From IMG/VR virus record IMGVR_UViG_2925919700_000004, positions 1-15,643 of that record: a stretch of 15,643 nucleotides of DNA; one strand, written 5' to 3'. Origin of the DNA: a virus. Its lineage: Duplodnaviria; Heunggongvirae; Uroviricota; Caudoviricetes. Of the stretch, positions 2,570-8,492 are shown piece after piece (within the stretch, counting starts at the first letter, position 1; every line of letters begins with the position of its first letter). The notes beneath the pieces are model-generated. The model was given only the letters and a program-made list of their open reading frames with translations, had not been told where the DNA came from and made no database searches. A program made the translations under genes and the position numbers.

Positions 2570-2896
2570 TCAAATAAGTGGTTTGCTGCCTAATTTCATT
2601 TTCTGGCGACCAACACAAGTCACACCCATTTCACTGCGTGGCTTGCTGTACCATGTGCGCTGATTCTTGCGCTCAATACGTTGCAGGTTGCTTTCAATCT
2701 GTTCGTGGTATTCAGACAGCACTGTAAGGTCTATCGGATTCAGTGCGCTTTCTACTCGTGATTTCGGTTTGCGATTCAGCGAGAGAATAGGGCGGTTAAC
2801 TGGTTTTGCGCTTACCCCAACCAACAGGGGATTTGCTGCTTTCCATTGAGCCTGTTTCTCTGCGCGACGTTCGCGGCGGCGTGTTTGTGCATCCAT
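2570..2896 (-). CDS. Hypothetical basic protein (108 aa, Arg/Lys-rich N-terminus)
   Basis: The track ORF 2570..2947 has an internal ATG at 2896 preceded by a strong AGGAG about 8 nt upstream (plus-strand ctcctgt at 2908-2914). N-terminus MDAQTRRRERRAEKQAQWKAANP is highly basic, which might indicate nucleic-acid binding. Confidence 0.5.
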   Translation of the reverse strand: MDAQTRRRERRAEKQAQWKAANPLLVGVSAKPVNRPILSLNRKPKSRVESALNPIDLTVLSEYHEQIESNLQRIERKNQRTWYSKPRSEMGVTCVGRQKMKLGSKPLI

Positions 2897-2983
2897 CTTT
2901 ATTCTCCTGTCAGTTAGCTTTGGTGGTGTGGTAGGTGGGAGACCCATTTCGACCTGCTTCGGCCGACTTCAATTCGGCAATAG

Positions 2984-3295
2984 TTCCGCAGGCCTCGCCG
3001 CTTTACGTGCGACATATTCCCACTCGATGCTAAATACACCGGAGAACTAGCTGATGCGAAAAAGCAGCTTGATGATCTGCAGCGTTGTGTTCGCACTGGC
3101 AAGTGTGGGCTGCACTTCAATGCCCGATGTCCAGCGAGCGGAAAGACCGGCACCGGCAGCTTGGGCGATGCTTCCAGCCCCGGACTTACTGACTCCGCTG
3201 AACGGGATTATTTCACCCTCAGAGAGCGAATCGTCACAGTGACGAAGCAGGTCGGCTACTTGCAGGACTACATCAAAGAGCAGTGTTCAAATTAG
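2984..3295 (+). pseudogene. Rz: 5'-truncated Rz (i-spanin) remnant; no start codon, N-terminal transmembrane domain missing
   Basis: Reading frame open from 2984 to stop TAG at 3293-3295 with no ATG/GTG/TTG start. Translation ...LDAKYTGELADAKKQL...DASSPGLTDSAERDYFTLREAIVTVTKQVGYLQDYIKEQCSN aligns with the C-terminal ~90 residues of lambda Rz (...LDAKYTKELADAKAEND...NAASPRLADTAERDYFTLRERLITMQKQLEGTQKYINEQCR, from memory). Confidence 0.8.
3054..3242 (+). CDS. Rz1: Rz1 (o-spanin) outer-membrane lipoprotein, embedded in the +1 frame of the Rz remnant
   Basis: 62-aa ORF MRKSSLMICSVVFALASVGCTSMPDVQRAERPAPAAWAMLPAPDLLTPLNGIISPSESESSQ, with a signal peptide ending in a lipobox-like SVGC and a proline-rich mature region. 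Strongly resembles lambda Rz1 (...VVGCTSK...PPPPPAWIMQPPPDWQTPLNGIISPSERG, from memory). Confidence 0.8.
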   Translation: MRKSSLMICSVVFALASVGCTSMPDVQRAERPAPAAWAMLPAPDLLTPLNGIISPSESESSQ

Positions 3296-3353
3296 TGTTA
3301 ATGAAGAATTTTAAGGGTAATATTATCTCTATTTCTCAGGATGGAGGTAATTT

Positions 3354-3761
3354 ATGCAGACCGATCTGGAATACTTGAAGGGAATGTTAGGGGTCTTTAT
3401 TAAGGCTGGCGGACCATTGATATCAGCTAATGACCTTAAAAAAGCTGGATACGAAATAAGCAGCGATAAAGGACTCTTTCATTACTACCAATTGATTGAG
3501 AGAGGTTATATTAGTAACCATTTTCTAGAAATAGGCGATCCTAAGAAATTAGGACTTACTATTGGGCTTAATGAAATCCGTGAATGGCCAGCCAATGTAA
3601 GACTCACGTCATCAGGCCAAGAGTTTGCAGAAACCCTTCAACAAAAGGCTGTTTTTGAGAAGCTAAAAACAATTAGCGATCAACCATTATCGGTATTGAA
3701 AGATGTTGGTGTAGAGCTTCTAAAATCCTACGCAAAAAAGAAATTTGGTCTTTCAGATTAA
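3354..3761 (+). CDS. Hypothetical cytoplasmic protein (135 aa), cargo gene of unknown function
   Basis: ATG at 3354 with GGAGG about 8 nt upstream. AT-rich compared with the flanking Rz and terminase genes. No transmembrane segment evident and no recognisable motif. Followed by a terminator-like hairpin. Confidence 0.6.
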   Translation: MQTDLEYLKGMLGVFIKAGGPLISANDLKKAGYEISSDKGLFHYYQLIERGYISNHFLEIGDPKKLGLTIGLNEIREWPANVRLTSSGQEFAETLQQKAVFEKLKTISDQPLSVLKDVGVELLKSYAKKKFGLSD

Positions 3762-3783
3762 CTGCCTATGGGCGGTTTTTATT
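3762..3783 (+). terminator. Candidate Rho-independent terminator
   Basis: CTGCC-tatg-GGCGG stem (one G-U pair) followed by TTTTTATT, immediately after the stop codon at 3759-3761. Confidence 0.45.
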
Positions 3784-3875
3784 GCCATTACGATGATTCT
3801 CCCCATCGTGATGGCAGTATCCCCTACAGAGGATAATTAACCATATATCCCCACAAGCGGATAAAGAGGCTCTCA

Positions 3876-3989
3876 ATGTCCGACATCTACCAAACCCAAA
3901 CAGGCGAAACCTTTACGGGCAAGACGTCACGACGTCAGCCTGATCTGGTTAATGGCTTTATGCAGCTGGCTACCGAGACGGGCGAGTAA
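3876..3989 (+). CDS. Possible small ORF (37 aa, MSDIYQTQTGETFTGKTSRRQPDLVNGFMQLATETGE)
   Basis: ATG at 3876 preceded by AAAGAGG about 5 nt upstream. GC content higher than surrounding AT-rich DNA. Too short to assess, so it may be a gene fragment. Confidence 0.25.
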   Translation: MSDIYQTQTGETFTGKTSRRQPDLVNGFMQLATETGE

Positions 3990-4077
3990 ATAACTCCATT
4001 AGGAGAATGTGGAACCATTACACTTTGAGCCGTTAACTGATATTGATAAAGGTAAATAATATCTTGGTTAAGGTTTT

Positions 4078-4350
4078 CTAATAGCCAGCCATTTGCAAAA
4101 TCACAGTTGCAGCAGCAGCGAAAGCTGCATATGAGTTATATTTAGACTGTAACCGCGCAGTTAAGAAAAATTCGTGAAGATCTACATTTTTTTTGGGATC
4201 ATCAAATGTAATTGCTACAACGGTGCTTCTACCTGTTTTGACTTTGGCTGTTGCTGATTTGATCCATAACCCAGCCGATAAAAACCCAAAGAAAATCGAT
4301 AGTGCATGATGGTCAATTAACCAGTTTTTAATTAGTAATAAATCACTCAT
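4078..4350 (-). CDS. Small hypothetical membrane protein (about 90 aa) antisense to the late operon, at the bor-equivalent position
   Basis: Track ORF 4078..4395 trimmed to the internal ATG at 4350 (MSDLLLIKNWLIDHHALSIFFGFLSAGLWI...). One clear and one weaker hydrophobic segment. AT-rich. Convergent with the 3354..3761 gene. Not similar to lambda Bor as I recall it. Confidence 0.45.
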   Translation of the reverse strand: MSDLLLIKNWLIDHHALSIFFGFLSAGLWIKSATAKVKTGRSTVVAITFDDPKKNVDLHEFFLTARLQSKYNSYAAFAAAATVILQMAGY

Positions 4351-4374
4351 TTTCAATCCAATTGAGACTTTGTC

Positions 4375-4926
4375 ATGGCACTCACCGACAAACAAGAGAT
4401 GTTCTGTCGCGAGTACCTCATCGATTTAAACGCCACGCAAGCGGCTATTCGGGCGGGGTACAGCGCAAAGACAGCTAACCGTACCGCATCCGAAAACCTG
4501 TCAAAACCTGACATCAAGTTAAGAATCGCCGAACTGAAAGCACAACGCAATGATCTTGTTGGTATTAATGCAGAATATGTACTTAATCGCCTTATTGAAA
4601 TCGACCAGATGGATGTGCTCGACATTCTCCTGCAAAACGGTGAGTTAAAGCCCATTAAAGACTGGCCTAAGGTATGGCGCACAACGCTATCAGGAATGGA
4701 TGTCGTGGAGATGGCATCCGCAGATAGCGCCGCACTTCTGAAGAAAATCAAATGGCCTGATAAGGTCAAAAACCTTGAGTTGCTCGGGCGTCATGTTTCT
4801 GTTCAGGCGTTTAAAGACAATGTCAAAAATGAAGTGACTGGCGCTGATGGAGGACCAGTCAGAACAGAAATTACCAACTTAACGCCGGAGCAGGCTGCAG
4901 AAGTGTATAAAAAAATGATGGGCTAA
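4375..4926 (+). CDS. terS: Terminase small subunit (Terminase_2 / P27-like family)
   Basis: 183-aa ORF starting [34 protein letters not shown]..., a characteristic N-terminal signature of this terminase small subunit family. Directly precedes the large subunit gene. Confidence 0.9.
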
Positions 4927-4928
4927 GT

Positions 4929-6551
4929 ATGCCGTTACCATTCCCCTTCGATTTTAAACATCCTGATTACCAGATGGTTTTTGAATGGCGGATGGAACGC
5001 CTACAGCGCATTCGCCAGAACCCTGAAATATTGCCAGCACTAAAACAGTTTTACCGAACCAACCCGGCTCAGTTCATCATCGACTGGGGCATGACAACGG
5101 ACCCGCGTAATATTGATTATGGCCTGCCGGTGACCATTCCGTTTTTACTCTTCCCTAAGCAGGAGGAGTGGATCCACTGGATTATGGAACGCTGGGGTAA
5201 TCGGGAGAATGGTATTACCGAAAAATCCCGTGAAATGGGGCTCAGTTGGACCGCGATCGGACTGGCCTGCTCGCTTTGTCTCTTCAACAAAGAAATGGTT
5301 ATCGGTTTCGGCTCCCGTAAAGAGGAATACGTCGACAGCACCGGTGACCCGAAAGCATTGTTCTGGAAGGCGCGCAAGTTCGTGGAAACGCTACCTGTAG
5401 AGTTTCGCGGTTCGTGGAGCGAGAAGAAGCACGCGCCATATATGCGTGTTGAGTTTCCTGAAACTGGTGCCGTTATCAAAGGCGAGGCTGGCGATAATAT
5501 TGGTCGTGGTGACCGTACCACGCTTTATCTGGTTGATGAGGCTGCATTCCTTCAGCGTCCTCTGCTGATTGATGCTGCGTTGTCACAAACGACGCGTTGC
5601 CGTATTGACCTGAGTTCAGTTAACGGCATGGCGAACCCGTTCGCTCAGAAGCGTCATGGCGGGAAGATACCGGTATTCACATTCCACTGGCGGGATGATC
5701 CTCGCAAGGATGAAGAGTGGTATCGCAGGGAATGCGAGAAAATCGATAATCCGGTGGTGGTGGCACAGGAACTTGATCTGAACTACAGCGCATCTGCGGA
5801 AGGCGTCCTGATCCCGTCCGACTGGGTACAGGCTGCCGTCGACGCACATATCAAACTTGGTATTCAGCCAACGGGCAAGCGACTGGGCGCGATGGACGTC
5901 GCCGACGAAGGCCGGGACAAAAATGCCTTTTCGACCCGTCACGGCTTCCTTCTGGAGAACGTGCGTGAATGGTCCGGCGTTGGCAGCGACATTTACCAGT
6001 CTGTTGAGAAGGTCTTCGGCTTTTGCGAACAGGACAACCTCGAAGAGTTTCGCTTTGACGAGGACGGGCTGGGCGCTGGCGTTCGCGGCGATGCACGCGC
6101 TATCAACGAACTGCGTAACGCTGCGCGCCGACCGTCAATACTCGCAACACCGTTTCGAGGTAGTGGCGCGGTATTTGATCCGGATGATGAAGCGGTGCGC
6201 GGTGACAACGGACAGGCCGCCCGCCTGAACAAGGACTTCTTCGCTAACGCCAAAGCCCAGAGCTGGTGGCGGTTACGTAAACTTTTTCAGAATACCTGGC
6301 GCGCCGTGGTCGAAGGTATGGCTTACAACCCGGACGAAATCATCTCAATCAGCAGTAGCATGGCACTCAAAGATAAACTCATCATCGAGCTTTCGCAGCC
6401 GACCTATTCCATTAATGGTATGGGAAAAATCGTTATTGATAAACAGCCTGATGGAACCCGGTCGCCAAACCTTGCCGACTCGGTGATGATCAACTATGCC
6501 CCAATGAATTCAGCCCTGAACATCTGGGAGCTGCTAGGGAGACAGGCCTGA
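4929..6551 (+). CDS. terL: Terminase large subunit (ATPase and nuclease)
   Basis: 540-aa ORF. Has a lambda gpA-like deviant P-loop (KSREMGLS, compare lambda KSARVGYS), a Walker B-like LYLVDEAAF motif and acidic nuclease-type motifs ([11 protein letters not shown]). Start is 2 nt after the terS stop; its stop overlaps the portal start (TGATG). Confidence 0.9.
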
Positions 6552-8017
6552 TGGCACGAAACAAACAAGCCACGCGGCGAACGGCACAGGCCACCGCTGA
6601 TGGCTATGAGAACTTTGTTGCCCGCGTGGGGATGCAGACGCCTAACCAGCACTCAGCATCGACCTACCGGGCTAACTTCACCAGTCGTAACCGCATGCTG
6701 GTGGAATGGTCCTATCGTTCGTCCTGGATCATCGGCGAAGCGGTCGACGCTATCCCGGATGATATGACCCGCAAAGGCATTCGCATCACTTCGGAAATTG
6801 ATGCAAAAGATCGTGGCATTCTCGAATCACAACTGGATGAGTTGCAAATCTGGGATGCGCTGAATGACGTGCTGAAATGGTCGCGCCTCTATGGCGGCGC
6901 GGTGGGTTTCATCATGATTGAGGGGCAGGCACCAATGACCCCGCTGCGACCCGAAACCATCGGTAAGGGCAAGTTTAAGGGGATTCTCCCGCTCGACCGC
7001 TGGATGATCGACCCGGTACTGACCCGCCGCATTAAAGATATGGGGCCGGACCTGGGTAAACCTGAGTTTTACGATGTGGTGACCACAGCAACGGGAATTC
7101 CTGCCTGGCGCATTCATCACAGTCGACTGATTCGCTTTGATGGCGTCACGCTGCCATTTCAGCAGAAGATGACTGAGAACGAATGGGGAATGTCGGTTGT
7201 AGAGCGTATCTGGGATCGTCTTACCGCGTTCGACAGCGCTACTGTCGGCGCGGCGCAGCTGGTCTACAAAGCGCATCTGCGGACCTACAAGGTGGAAAAA
7301 CTTCGTGAGCTTATTGCGCTGGGCGGCCAGGCATTCGAGGCGCTGCTGAAAAACATTGATCTGATTCGACAGTTTCAGAGCAATGAAGGCATGACACTAA
7401 TGGATGCCAAAGATACCTTCGAAACCCACCAGTACAGCTTCAGTGGTCTGGATGACATTCTTTCGCAGTTCGCTGAGCAGATCAGCGGTGCCGTCGGCAT
7501 CCCGCTGGTACGCCTGTTTGGTCAATCCCCGAAAGGCTTCTCAACTGGTGACGCAGACCTCGCCAACTATTACGACCGGGTGAGTTCATTGCAGGAGCGA
7601 CGATTACGGCTGCCGATGCGCCGGATACTGGACATTATGCACCGCTCGGAACTCGGTAAGCCGCTGCCGGACGATTTCACGTTTGAGTTTAACCCGCTCT
7701 GGCAAATGTCTGATGTCGATCGTTCAACGGTGGCGTTAAATACCACCAACGCAATCAGTACAGCGCTGGGTGATGGTCTGATGACACTGAAAGCCGCTAT
7801 GACTGATTTGCGCGAAAATTCTGACGTAACCGGCATCGGGGCATCCATTACCGACGAGGACATAGAGAATGCCGAAGACGAAGCGCCGCCAGGCATCCGC
7901 GAACCTGATGACGAACCGCAGGAGCCGTCAGGCGGAAATCCGCTATCGAACCAGCCTACGCAGGATAGCGCGGGCGGTCGGAGACATCGTAAATGGTCAC
8001 TACGATGGTTCAAATGA
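6551..8017 (+). CDS. Portal protein
   Basis: 488-aa ORF immediately downstream of and translationally coupled to terL, preceded by GGGAGA. Size, position and acidic C-terminal tail are typical of portal proteins in Mu-like or SPP1-like head modules. Followed by a Mu-F-like gene. Confidence 0.8.
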   Translation: MARNKQATRRTAQATADGYENFVARVGMQTPNQHSASTYRANFTSRNRMLVEWSYRSSWIIGEAVDAIPDDMTRKGIRITSEIDAKDRGILESQLDELQIWDALNDVLKWSRLYGGAVGFIMIEGQAPMTPLRPETIGKGKFKGILPLDRWMIDPVLTRRIKDMGPDLGKPEFYDVVTTATGIPAWRIHHSRLIRFDGVTLPFQQKMTENEWGMSVVERIWDRLTAFDSATVGAAQLVYKAHLRTYKVEKLRELIALGGQAFEALLKNIDLIRQFQSNEGMTLMDAKDTFETHQYSFSGLDDILSQFAEQISGAVGIPLVRLFGQSPKGFSTGDADLANYYDRVSSLQERRLRLPMRRILDIMHRSELGKPLPDDFTFEFNPLWQMSDVDRSTVALNTTNAISTALGDGLMTLKAAMTDLRENSDVTGIGASITDEDIENAEDEAPPGIREPDDEPQEPSGGNPLSNQPTQDSAGGRRHRKWSLRWFK

Positions 8018-8492
8018 TAGCGTTACCGAAATAATGGATGCGCTGGAGCGCTACAGCGAAATCATCACCCCCTGGGCGACGAAGGTTGCTGAGAACTTTA
8101 CCGCCGACATTGCACGCCAGAATGAAAAGCAGTGGCGTCAGTACAGCCGGAACATCAGCGCAGAGCTGCGCAACATGGTCGACCGCGCCCCGGTAGGCCA
8201 GGTGATGAAATCCATCGTCGCCGAGCAAATTAAGTACATCAAGTCACTGCCTCTTGAGGCCGCCGATCGGGTGTATGACATTCAGAACAAGGCCATCGAG
8301 GCCGTTGTGTCTGGTGGCCGCGCTGAACCATTCGCGAAAGAGATAGCAGCGTCCGGTGACGTGTCACGCTCACGAGCGAACCTTATCGCCCGTACCGAGC
8401 TTGGACGTGCAACCGGCGCACTCGATCAGGCGCGTGCGCTGTCAATCGGCTCGAATGGTTATAACGTGGCGTCATTACTGGGAGGCGGCTAA
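7869..8492 (+). CDS. Head morphogenesis protein, Mu F / SPP1 gp7-like minor head protein
   Basis: 207-aa ORF containing the ...SRANLIARTELGRA... motif typical of the Phage_Mu_F domain. ATG at 7869 has GAGGA about 8 nt upstream but overlaps the portal gene by 149 nt; alternative in-frame starts are at 7908 and 8034. Confidence 0.75.
   Translation: MPKTKRRQASANLMTNRRSRQAEIRYRTSLRRIARAVGDIVNGHYDGSNDSVTEIMDALERYSEIITPWATKVAENFTADIARQNEKQWRQYSRNISAELRNMVDRAPVGQVMKSIVAEQIKYIKSLPLEAADRVYDIQNKAIEAVVSGGRAEPFAKEIAASGDVSRSRANLIARTELGRATGALDQARALSIGSNGYNVASLLGGG

Follow-up and report, generated by a model that had tools for sequence, protein, structure and literature searches.

How two small AT-rich genes come to lie side by side where lysis genes give way to packaging genes in a lambdoid prophage, and whether they belong together, is the question raised by the virus record IMGVR_UViG_2925919700_000004 of IMG/VR. 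The stretch of DNA that was analysed, referred to as the window, is 15,643 nucleotides (nt) long; the interval under study, 3296-4374, is bounded by the stop codon of an Rz-type spanin gene (3295) and the start of terS (4375), and the loci compared with it are numbered L001, L002 and so on. Three reading frames occupy the interval: P135 and the short orf37 on the plus strand, and P90 on the minus strand, convergent with P135. The first-pass annotation of this DNA took P135 and P90 for a functional pair and a candidate for superinfection exclusion, anti-phage defence or a host-fitness factor. Judged by their conservation, both are real accessory genes; judged by the loci in which they occur, they are independent of each other and joined by recombination, not a functional pair. 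The interval as a whole is probably a mosaic moron slot at the lysis/packaging boundary of the prophage: recombination would have united two independent single-gene cassettes and left a remnant of a third gene where they meet.

That the two genes are independent is best seen in the distribution of their relatives. A set of 106 loci was searched with profiles of both families; it included viral contigs chosen for a relative of P135 (55 contigs) or of P90 (25 contigs). P135 and P90 occur together only in one near-identical island, in which their spacing is always identical; P135 is found alone in 57 loci and P90 alone in 27. Among 5426 complete Escherichia coli genomes, the whole island is present in nine, and P90 and P135 are present in 10 and 11 chromosomes, respectively. 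E. coli IGC_RcoliRes_1.1, R1 and MS 119-7 carry the island intact. P90 copies of 98-100% identity exist without P135 (L003, L081 and L090-94); at L003, P90 lies beside the same terS, with a Rha regulator in the place of P135. The opposite arrangement is seen at L002, where a P135 relative following Rz is succeeded by a full-length gene of 69 amino acids (aa), an unrelated antisense gene of 112 aa and a different terminase, with no P90. Two copies of the island separate the genes in another manner: in L028/L099 P90 is split by a frameshift and P135 is intact, and in L033/L085 P135 is split and P90 is intact.

The joint between the two genes can be located. The frame orf37 corresponds to the first 37 codons of the 69-aa gene, full-length versions of which are preserved in L002 and L021, and its match to phrog_6581 covers positions 1-41 of 66. 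Homology to the full-length genes ends exactly at the stop codon of orf37, at about 3987. The boundaries of the matches are 3023-3987 for H35 and 3811-4600 for H37. The recombination joint between a P135 module and a P90-terS module lies at about 3987, marked by the truncated gene.

Base composition sets the two genes apart from their surroundings. The interval had been described as AT-richer than its flanks, and measurement bears this out: its guanine-cytosine fraction (GC) is 0.39, compared with 0.47-0.54 in the flanks (Rz fragment 0.54, terS 0.47, terL 0.53) and a window mean of 0.488, which puts it in the lowest 0.1% of stretches of the same size. P135 (0.38) and P90 (0.37) each fall in the lowest 2%; they are compositionally foreign to the flanks, in keeping with the horizontal acquisition suggested at first reading. 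The picture of a single AT-rich island has to be qualified, since both genes are low in GC but the 316 nt between them (3762-4077) reach 0.45 and orf37 reaches 0.53; AT-richness is therefore not uniform. The borders named in the first-pass annotation, Rz1 and terS, need a similar adjustment: terS is the right border, but on the left the slot is bounded by the end of Rz and not by Rz1, which is embedded in Rz (Table 1). A scan of 2900-4700 against Rfam matched no RNA family, and a search for repeats within the island returned only short chance repeats.

Table 1. Features of the spanin-terS slot and its borders (window positions).
Feature	Position	Strand	Remarks
Rz 3' fragment (i-spanin)	3021..3295	+	left border of the slot; some 62 codons missing at the 5' end
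Rz1 (o-spanin lipoprotein), embedded in Rz, intact, 62 aa	3054..3242	+	open reading frame; translation MRKSSLMICSVVFALASVGC...
P135 leader, AT-rich, GC 0.28	3296..3353	+	GGAGG at 3342-3346
P135, 135 aa	3354..3761	+	predicted soluble winged-helix protein with C-terminal helical extension
P135 intrinsic terminator	3760..3785	+	stem CTGCC/GGCGG, loop TATG, then T-run (terminator scan)
orf37, 5' remnant of 69-aa phage gene (phrog_6581)	3876..3989	+	
P90, 90 aa, two predicted hydrophobic helices	4078..4350	-	antisense to the late genes
Spacer between the divergent P90 and terS start codons, 24 nt	4351..4374		
terS, Terminase_2 small subunit	4375..4926	+	right border of the slot; Pfam PF03592, 7.1e-40; annotated so in L001

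P135 has the makings of a self-contained gene. A GGAGG Shine-Dalgarno sequence stands 7 nt upstream of its ATG, and the hairpin of its terminator (3760-3777) overlaps its stop codon and is followed by a run of T; the strong ribosome-binding site and separate terminator recognized at first reading are thus both in place. In a relaxed scan the leader contains a weak sigma-70-like element, TTAATG-17-TATTAT at 3298-3326, matching the consensus at 8/12 positions; a standard promoter scan returns nothing upstream of P135. The protein is without a hydrophobic segment (maximum KD19 1.04), which upholds its description as cytoplasmic. Pairwise ratios of non-synonymous to synonymous substitution (dN/dS) against relatives are 0.04-0.09, indicating purifying selection, and full-length relatives of 49-99% identity are found in Escherichia, Citrobacter, Klebsiella, Hafnia, Serratia, Pantoea and Pectobacterium.

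Homology and structure searches provide family assignments for both proteins, for which none could be named from the sequence at first reading: P135 belongs to phrog_585 (match 2.3e-26) and P90 to phrog_14357 (5.3e-62), each a PHROG without assigned function. For P135 there is, in addition, a relationship to DUF2513 (Pfam PF10711). The match of P135 itself, at 15.4 bits and an E value of 0.025, is below the gathering threshold of 29.6 bits; weak DUF2513 matches recur in 29 of 34 relatives (best E 3.7e-05), several of which are named 'DUF2513 domain-containing protein' by NCBI. An AlphaFold model built from 34 sequences has a predicted local distance difference test score (pLDDT) of 92.9 and consists of three helices and a beta wing with an insertion of about 25 residues, followed by three C-terminal helices; conservation within the family is highest in the last of these (residues 112-130). 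In this order of a winged-helix fold and C-terminal helices the model resembles DUF2513 and MarR/PadR-type proteins. Foldseek comparison with the PDB retrieves MarR and PecS (E about 0.03, template-modelling score about 0.4), comparison with viral predicted structures retrieves nothing at E <=0.001, and the P135 profile finds only chance matches (E >=0.2) among PDB sequences. P135 did not reach a family-level match, in sequence or structure, to the MarR/PadR transcription regulators, and is a winged-helix protein of its own subtype. P22 ORF201, an occupant of the same slot, was considered as a relative and rejected as unrelated. A literature search yielded nothing relevant on DUF2513 and nothing for the protein accessions or PHROG numbers.

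P90 is 90 aa long from its ATG; the mechanically called open reading frame of 105 aa starts at a TTG that its relatives do not use. Two hydrophobic segments, at about residues 10-35 and 73-90, are predicted family-wide and enclose a hydrophilic loop of some 39 residues, so that the earlier description of a convergent membrane protein of roughly 90 aa, antisense to the late operon, holds. The family is characterized by the motif LSAxLWxxSA in the first helix and by a juxtamembrane T..LQSKWNSxAA preceding the second; a tryptophan in the first helix (W29) and Q68 are invariant. P90 is free of cysteine, and a lipobox-like motif is present in one of 58 family members. At intermediate distances dN/dS is 0.11-0.18, again a sign of purifying selection.

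The size of the P90 family emerged with the depth of the search, from four clusters at first to 15 representatives by exhaustive HMMER and 147 clusters by profile search, the last comprising relatives of about 90 aa from Enterobacterales, Pseudomonas, Ralstonia, Herbaspirillum, Bradyrhizobium and metagenomes. Comparison of P90 and 15-58 relatives with Pfam, NCBIfam and PADLOC, permissive thresholds included, gave no consistent family. Matches to Cas_Csa4, to KwaA (E 0.021, in one of 15 relatives) and to others were dismissed as single chance matches, and neither SLATT nor any other family of two-helix effectors was indicated by the permissive Pfam and PADLOC searches. The P90 profile finds nothing below E 1.4 among PDB sequences (E >=1.4), and a tblastn search with P90 through 50,697 deposited phage genomes gives no match.

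The two families differ in where they settle. In about 46 of 70 loci P135 directly follows a spanin gene. At least four spanin types that are unrelated to one another take this place (lambda Rz-like, DUF2570-like, another coiled-coil i-spanin and o-spanin lipoproteins), and in many loci P135 starts 48-64 nt past the spanin stop. Directly 3' of P135 relatives lie intrinsic terminators, hairpins with a T-run, whose sequences fall into four or more unrelated kinds; the terminators of the window, L002 and L021 share a conserved stem and differ in the loop. Distant relatives occur beside ParB genes in a phage-plasmid, in an accessory region of Yersinia phage vB_YpM_39 and in the early-left operon of phage Chlobot.

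P90, in turn, is tied to the packaging side. Wherever it occurs in a lambdoid late region, it runs antisense to the adjacent genes and adjoins terminase genes, and divergent relatives (46-58% identity) lie beside other terminases; relatives are also found in integrase-proximal islands of Ralstonia, Pseudomonas and Herbaspirillum, away from terminase genes. P90 and about 270 nt of the terS 5' end are conserved as one block, which is joined to terS genes of 175, 183 and 195 aa. Comparison of L081, L084, L090 and L091 with window 4375-4640 shows that these three forms of terS are near-identical over the first 270 nt and then differ, which suggests a mosaic terS with a common N-terminal domain and exchangeable C-terminal parts. 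In L013/L014 (about 4790-5000), P90 is accompanied by a detached terS 5' fragment of at least 200 nt, some 1.5 kb from the working terminase genes, and hence P90 and the start of terS move as one block. Scans found no terminator for P90 and no acceptable promoter upstream of it; the one consensus match, 4376-4349, overlaps the P90 ATG. Given start codons only 24 nt apart, the P90 promoter and 5' untranslated region would have to lie inside, and antisense to, the translation start region of terS. In L008 the gap between P90 and terS is 77 nt, which leaves room for an intergenic promoter.

The space between the spanin and P90 is filled by different genes in different phages: P135, Rha, a colicin-immunity-like gene, an FtsK-gamma protein, a 294-aa trypsin-like protease corresponding to the PADLOC candidate PDC-S45 (1.1e-100), and another trypsin-like protease. 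With occupants so varied, the slot behaves as an accessory or defence hot spot. Known and candidate defence genes (RnlA/RnlB and PDC-S45) occupy the same slot in related prophages. The earlier suggestion of exclusion or defence may reasonably be entertained, mainly for P90; its reading of P135 and P90 as a pair is rejected. An RnlA/RnlB toxin-antitoxin pair (L096/L097, 141-1680, minus strand) directly adjoins a relative with 58% identity to P90. Trypsin-like proteases that stand alone, 245-294 aa in length, lie 0.1-3.2 kb from P90-family genes in four unrelated contexts (L005-7, L008/9, L012 and L090/92/93/94); they are only distantly related to one another, and PDC-S45 is one of them. They are found at 10 of 49 P90 loci versus none of the 57 P135-only loci, and none is present in the window. 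In L101-L103, and in this context only, a P90 relative is followed 375 nt downstream by a gene in the same orientation; its product of 153 aa has two hydrophobic helices in its central part and matches nothing in Pfam or PADLOC. The antisense position of P135-bearing prophages that lack P90 is held by the Cys/His-rich 112-aa protein (L002, 4110-4448, and L021-23, 5789-6127, minus strand), which is unrelated to P90 and has no Pfam or PADLOC match.

Taken as a mosaic moron slot, the interval would work as follows. The first cassette consists of P135 with its own ribosome-binding site and intrinsic terminator, read in the same direction as the late genes. Through its winged helix the protein would bind nucleic acid or a partner protein, and through its conserved C-terminal helices it would pair; an accessory regulator or sensor, rather than a part of the lysis or packaging machinery, is a tentative assignment to which we give somewhat less than an even chance. 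The second cassette is P90, whose gene abuts terS and runs against the late genes; its product would be a small hairpin protein of the inner membrane, transcribed from the repressed prophage by a promoter within the 5' end of terS. That P90 is made in this state and acts at the inner membrane, most likely by excluding or aborting a superinfecting phage, is possible but on balance doubtful. More speculative still, and in our estimate unlikely, is the idea that phrog_14357 as a whole represents a widespread and so far undescribed group of membrane proteins of prophages, which would be expressed antisense beside terminase genes and serve as a new kind of effector in superinfection exclusion or abortive infection, maybe together with nearby trypsin-like proteases.

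Several observations weigh against this account. The promoter scans reveal no convincing sigma-70 promoter for P135 or P90, and no model of PADLOC-DB 2.0 is matched by P135, P90 or orf37. The recognition helix of P135 is poor in basic residues, so that it may not bind DNA. Throughout the P90 family the loop carries almost no net charge, which leaves the topology of the protein weakly indicated, and an AlphaFold model of P90 on a five-sequence alignment is unusable (pLDDT 49.9). Each gene is disrupted in one of about 11 copies of the island, and both are accordingly dispensable to the prophage. Finally, the constant placement of P135 after spanins could mean a late-cycle role rather than cargo.

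Alternative explanations have to be judged against the same evidence. A single two-component system, defensive or toxin-antitoxin-like, with P135 as regulator or sensor and P90 as membrane effector, would account for the adjacency, convergence and shared AT-richness of the genes in the window and about 11 other island copies, and a winged-helix sensor combined with a small membrane effector is a plausible design. The co-occurrence test largely refutes it: the combination is confined to one near-identical lineage, set against the many loci with one gene only, P90 persists almost unchanged where P135 is missing, a truncated gene and a terminator separate the two, either partner can be broken with the other intact, and neither is matched in PADLOC. 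We regard such a system as very improbable. Even less credible is that the two are decaying or chance reading frames in the junk DNA of a dead prophage. Heavy deletion of the prophage in the window and the disrupted copies of each gene would agree with decay, but dN/dS is well below 1, full-length relatives exist in many genera, the fold of P135 is predicted with high confidence, and both frames of the window are intact and 99-100% identical to copies in apparently complete prophages; this conservation already refutes it.

The two remaining alternatives each concern one gene. P135 might be a late-cycle phage protein transcribed with the lysis and packaging genes, for example a DNA-binding packaging helper or a modulator of lysis timing; its orientation along the late operon at a steady distance from unrelated spanins, the want of a convincing promoter of its own, the strong constraint on its sequence and its presence in an isolated phage, vB_YpM_39, all speak for such a role. 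It is difficult to reconcile with prophages that have essentially the same lysis and terminase modules and either lack P135 or carry something else (Rha in L003, a protease in L090), with its rarity in E. coli chromosomes, with distant relatives in an early operon and beside ParB genes, and with a terminator directly 3' in nearly all contexts and a GC content foreign to the flanks, and we consider it unlikely, if worth keeping in mind. The P90-terS junction, for its part, might be conserved as a unit in which the 5' end of the P90 mRNA, antisense to the ribosome-binding site of terS, silences leaky terminase expression in the lysogen, the peptide being secondary, or P90 might be a small membrane toxin or holin-like protein. 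The closeness of the start codons, the common movement of P90 with the beginning of terS (also as the detached fragment of L013/L014) and the terminase genes next to more distant relatives fit an antisense unit. Conservation of the protein, which is under purifying selection and keeps W29 and Q68 invariant in relatives of as little as 30% identity, does not, and neither do the island relatives of Ralstonia, Pseudomonas and Herbaspirillum, which are not beside terminase genes, the wider gap of L008, which would suit an intergenic promoter, or the failure to match Rfam; this alternative is improbable. The mosaic slot with two independent cassettes remains the explanation that we prefer.

A comparison with known systems places this mosaic slot among familiar features. 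In phage lambda, bor is a serum-resistance lipoprotein gene that is expressed in lysogens; Bor is encoded by a 97-aa minus-strand open reading frame directly after Rz. P90 resembles it in lying after the spanin genes and before the packaging end, on the strand opposite the late genes, and in size (90 versus 97 aa). The likeness of the interval to the bor cargo position, pointed out at first reading, is therefore sound: related prophages with the same flanks carry different genes there, and P90 has the position and orientation of bor. Equally sound is the remark that neither protein resembles Bor; for P90, Pfam, BLASTP and hhalign show no homology to it. BLASTP of P90 against Bor gives E 0.026 over 35 residues and hhalign a probability of 0.2%; P90 has no signal peptide, lipobox or cysteine, and is a predicted two-helix inner-membrane protein, whereas Bor is an outer-membrane lipoprotein. 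Membership of P90 in the Bor family was accordingly rejected, its sole Pfam match being the chance one to Cas_Csa4.

A moron is an independently expressed gene that appears inserted in an operon when related phages are compared (PMC2629481). Like the morons of lambdoid and P22-like phages, P135 and P90 are present or absent between conserved flanks (L001, L002 and L003) and compositionally distinct, and P135 has its own terminator; unlike the 'ant moron' site of that study, the slot described here lies between spanin and terS. With respect to the promoter that the definition implies, there is the 8/12 match upstream of P135 and none that is usable upstream of P90. As a small prophage-encoded inner-membrane protein, P90 can be set by description, and as an analogy only, beside the superinfection-exclusion proteins T4 Imm, HK97 gp15 and P22 SieA (the last in PMC10883804); it lies where it would be shielded from late transcription. 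Searches of PHROG, Pfam and PADLOC detected no homology to any annotated family.

The slot is thus an ordinary kind of feature: a known hot spot of lambdoid phages, here with two morons that are uncharacterised as its cargo, and as it stands it opens no long-standing question. The modest interest that it holds lies in the unannotated, positionally constrained P90 family. If P90 does act in exclusion or abortive infection, the membrane defences encoded by prophages would gain a small family that is widely distributed and unannotated, and its fixed place beside terS would help to find the variable defence slot that adjoins it, with RnlAB, PDC-S45 and others. P135 would give a first functional handle on winged-helix proteins of the DUF2513-like kind, often met in the accessory regions of phages.

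The prophage around the slot is itself a deleted remnant. It has kept int (1-1074), xis, a gene of the ea8.5/DUF2528 type and lambda N, all on the minus strand. The leader of lambda N (region 2570-3029, homology to 3029) is fused to the middle of Rz at 3021-3029, with an overlap of 9 nt. Matches to intact prophages begin at window position 3021, inside Rz: in L001 the 153-aa 'lysis protein' occupies 5814-6275 of the locus, and the match to the window begins at 6001. No usable start is available to the Rz fragment upstream of a TTG at 3161; Rz1 falls in the region that is 99% identical to the L001 lysis gene. The deletion at the N-Rz junction has removed the immunity, replication, Q, holin and endolysin genes together with the late promoter, and the junction is present in none of the 5426 complete E. 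coli genomes. As Rz is truncated at its 5' end and the late promoter region is gone, the 'late operon' is only a remnant in the window, and any expression of P135 or P90 there must be autonomous. The intactness of the two genes in this remnant says little, because of their near-identity to the copies in apparently complete prophages.

A second junction lies further along the window, at about 8462-8472, where matches overlap by 11 nt: here a baseplate/tail-fibre module that is 97% identical to vB_EcoM-type phages is joined to what is left of a minor head gene (7869-8492, 207 aa, truncated), and the capsid and tail-tube genes are absent. A second stretch of low GC (0.38-0.41), between 1400 and 2300, adjoins xis and constitutes another accessory region; it includes a minus-strand gene of 180 aa (1566-2108) with DUF2528 and lambda ea8.5-related domains.

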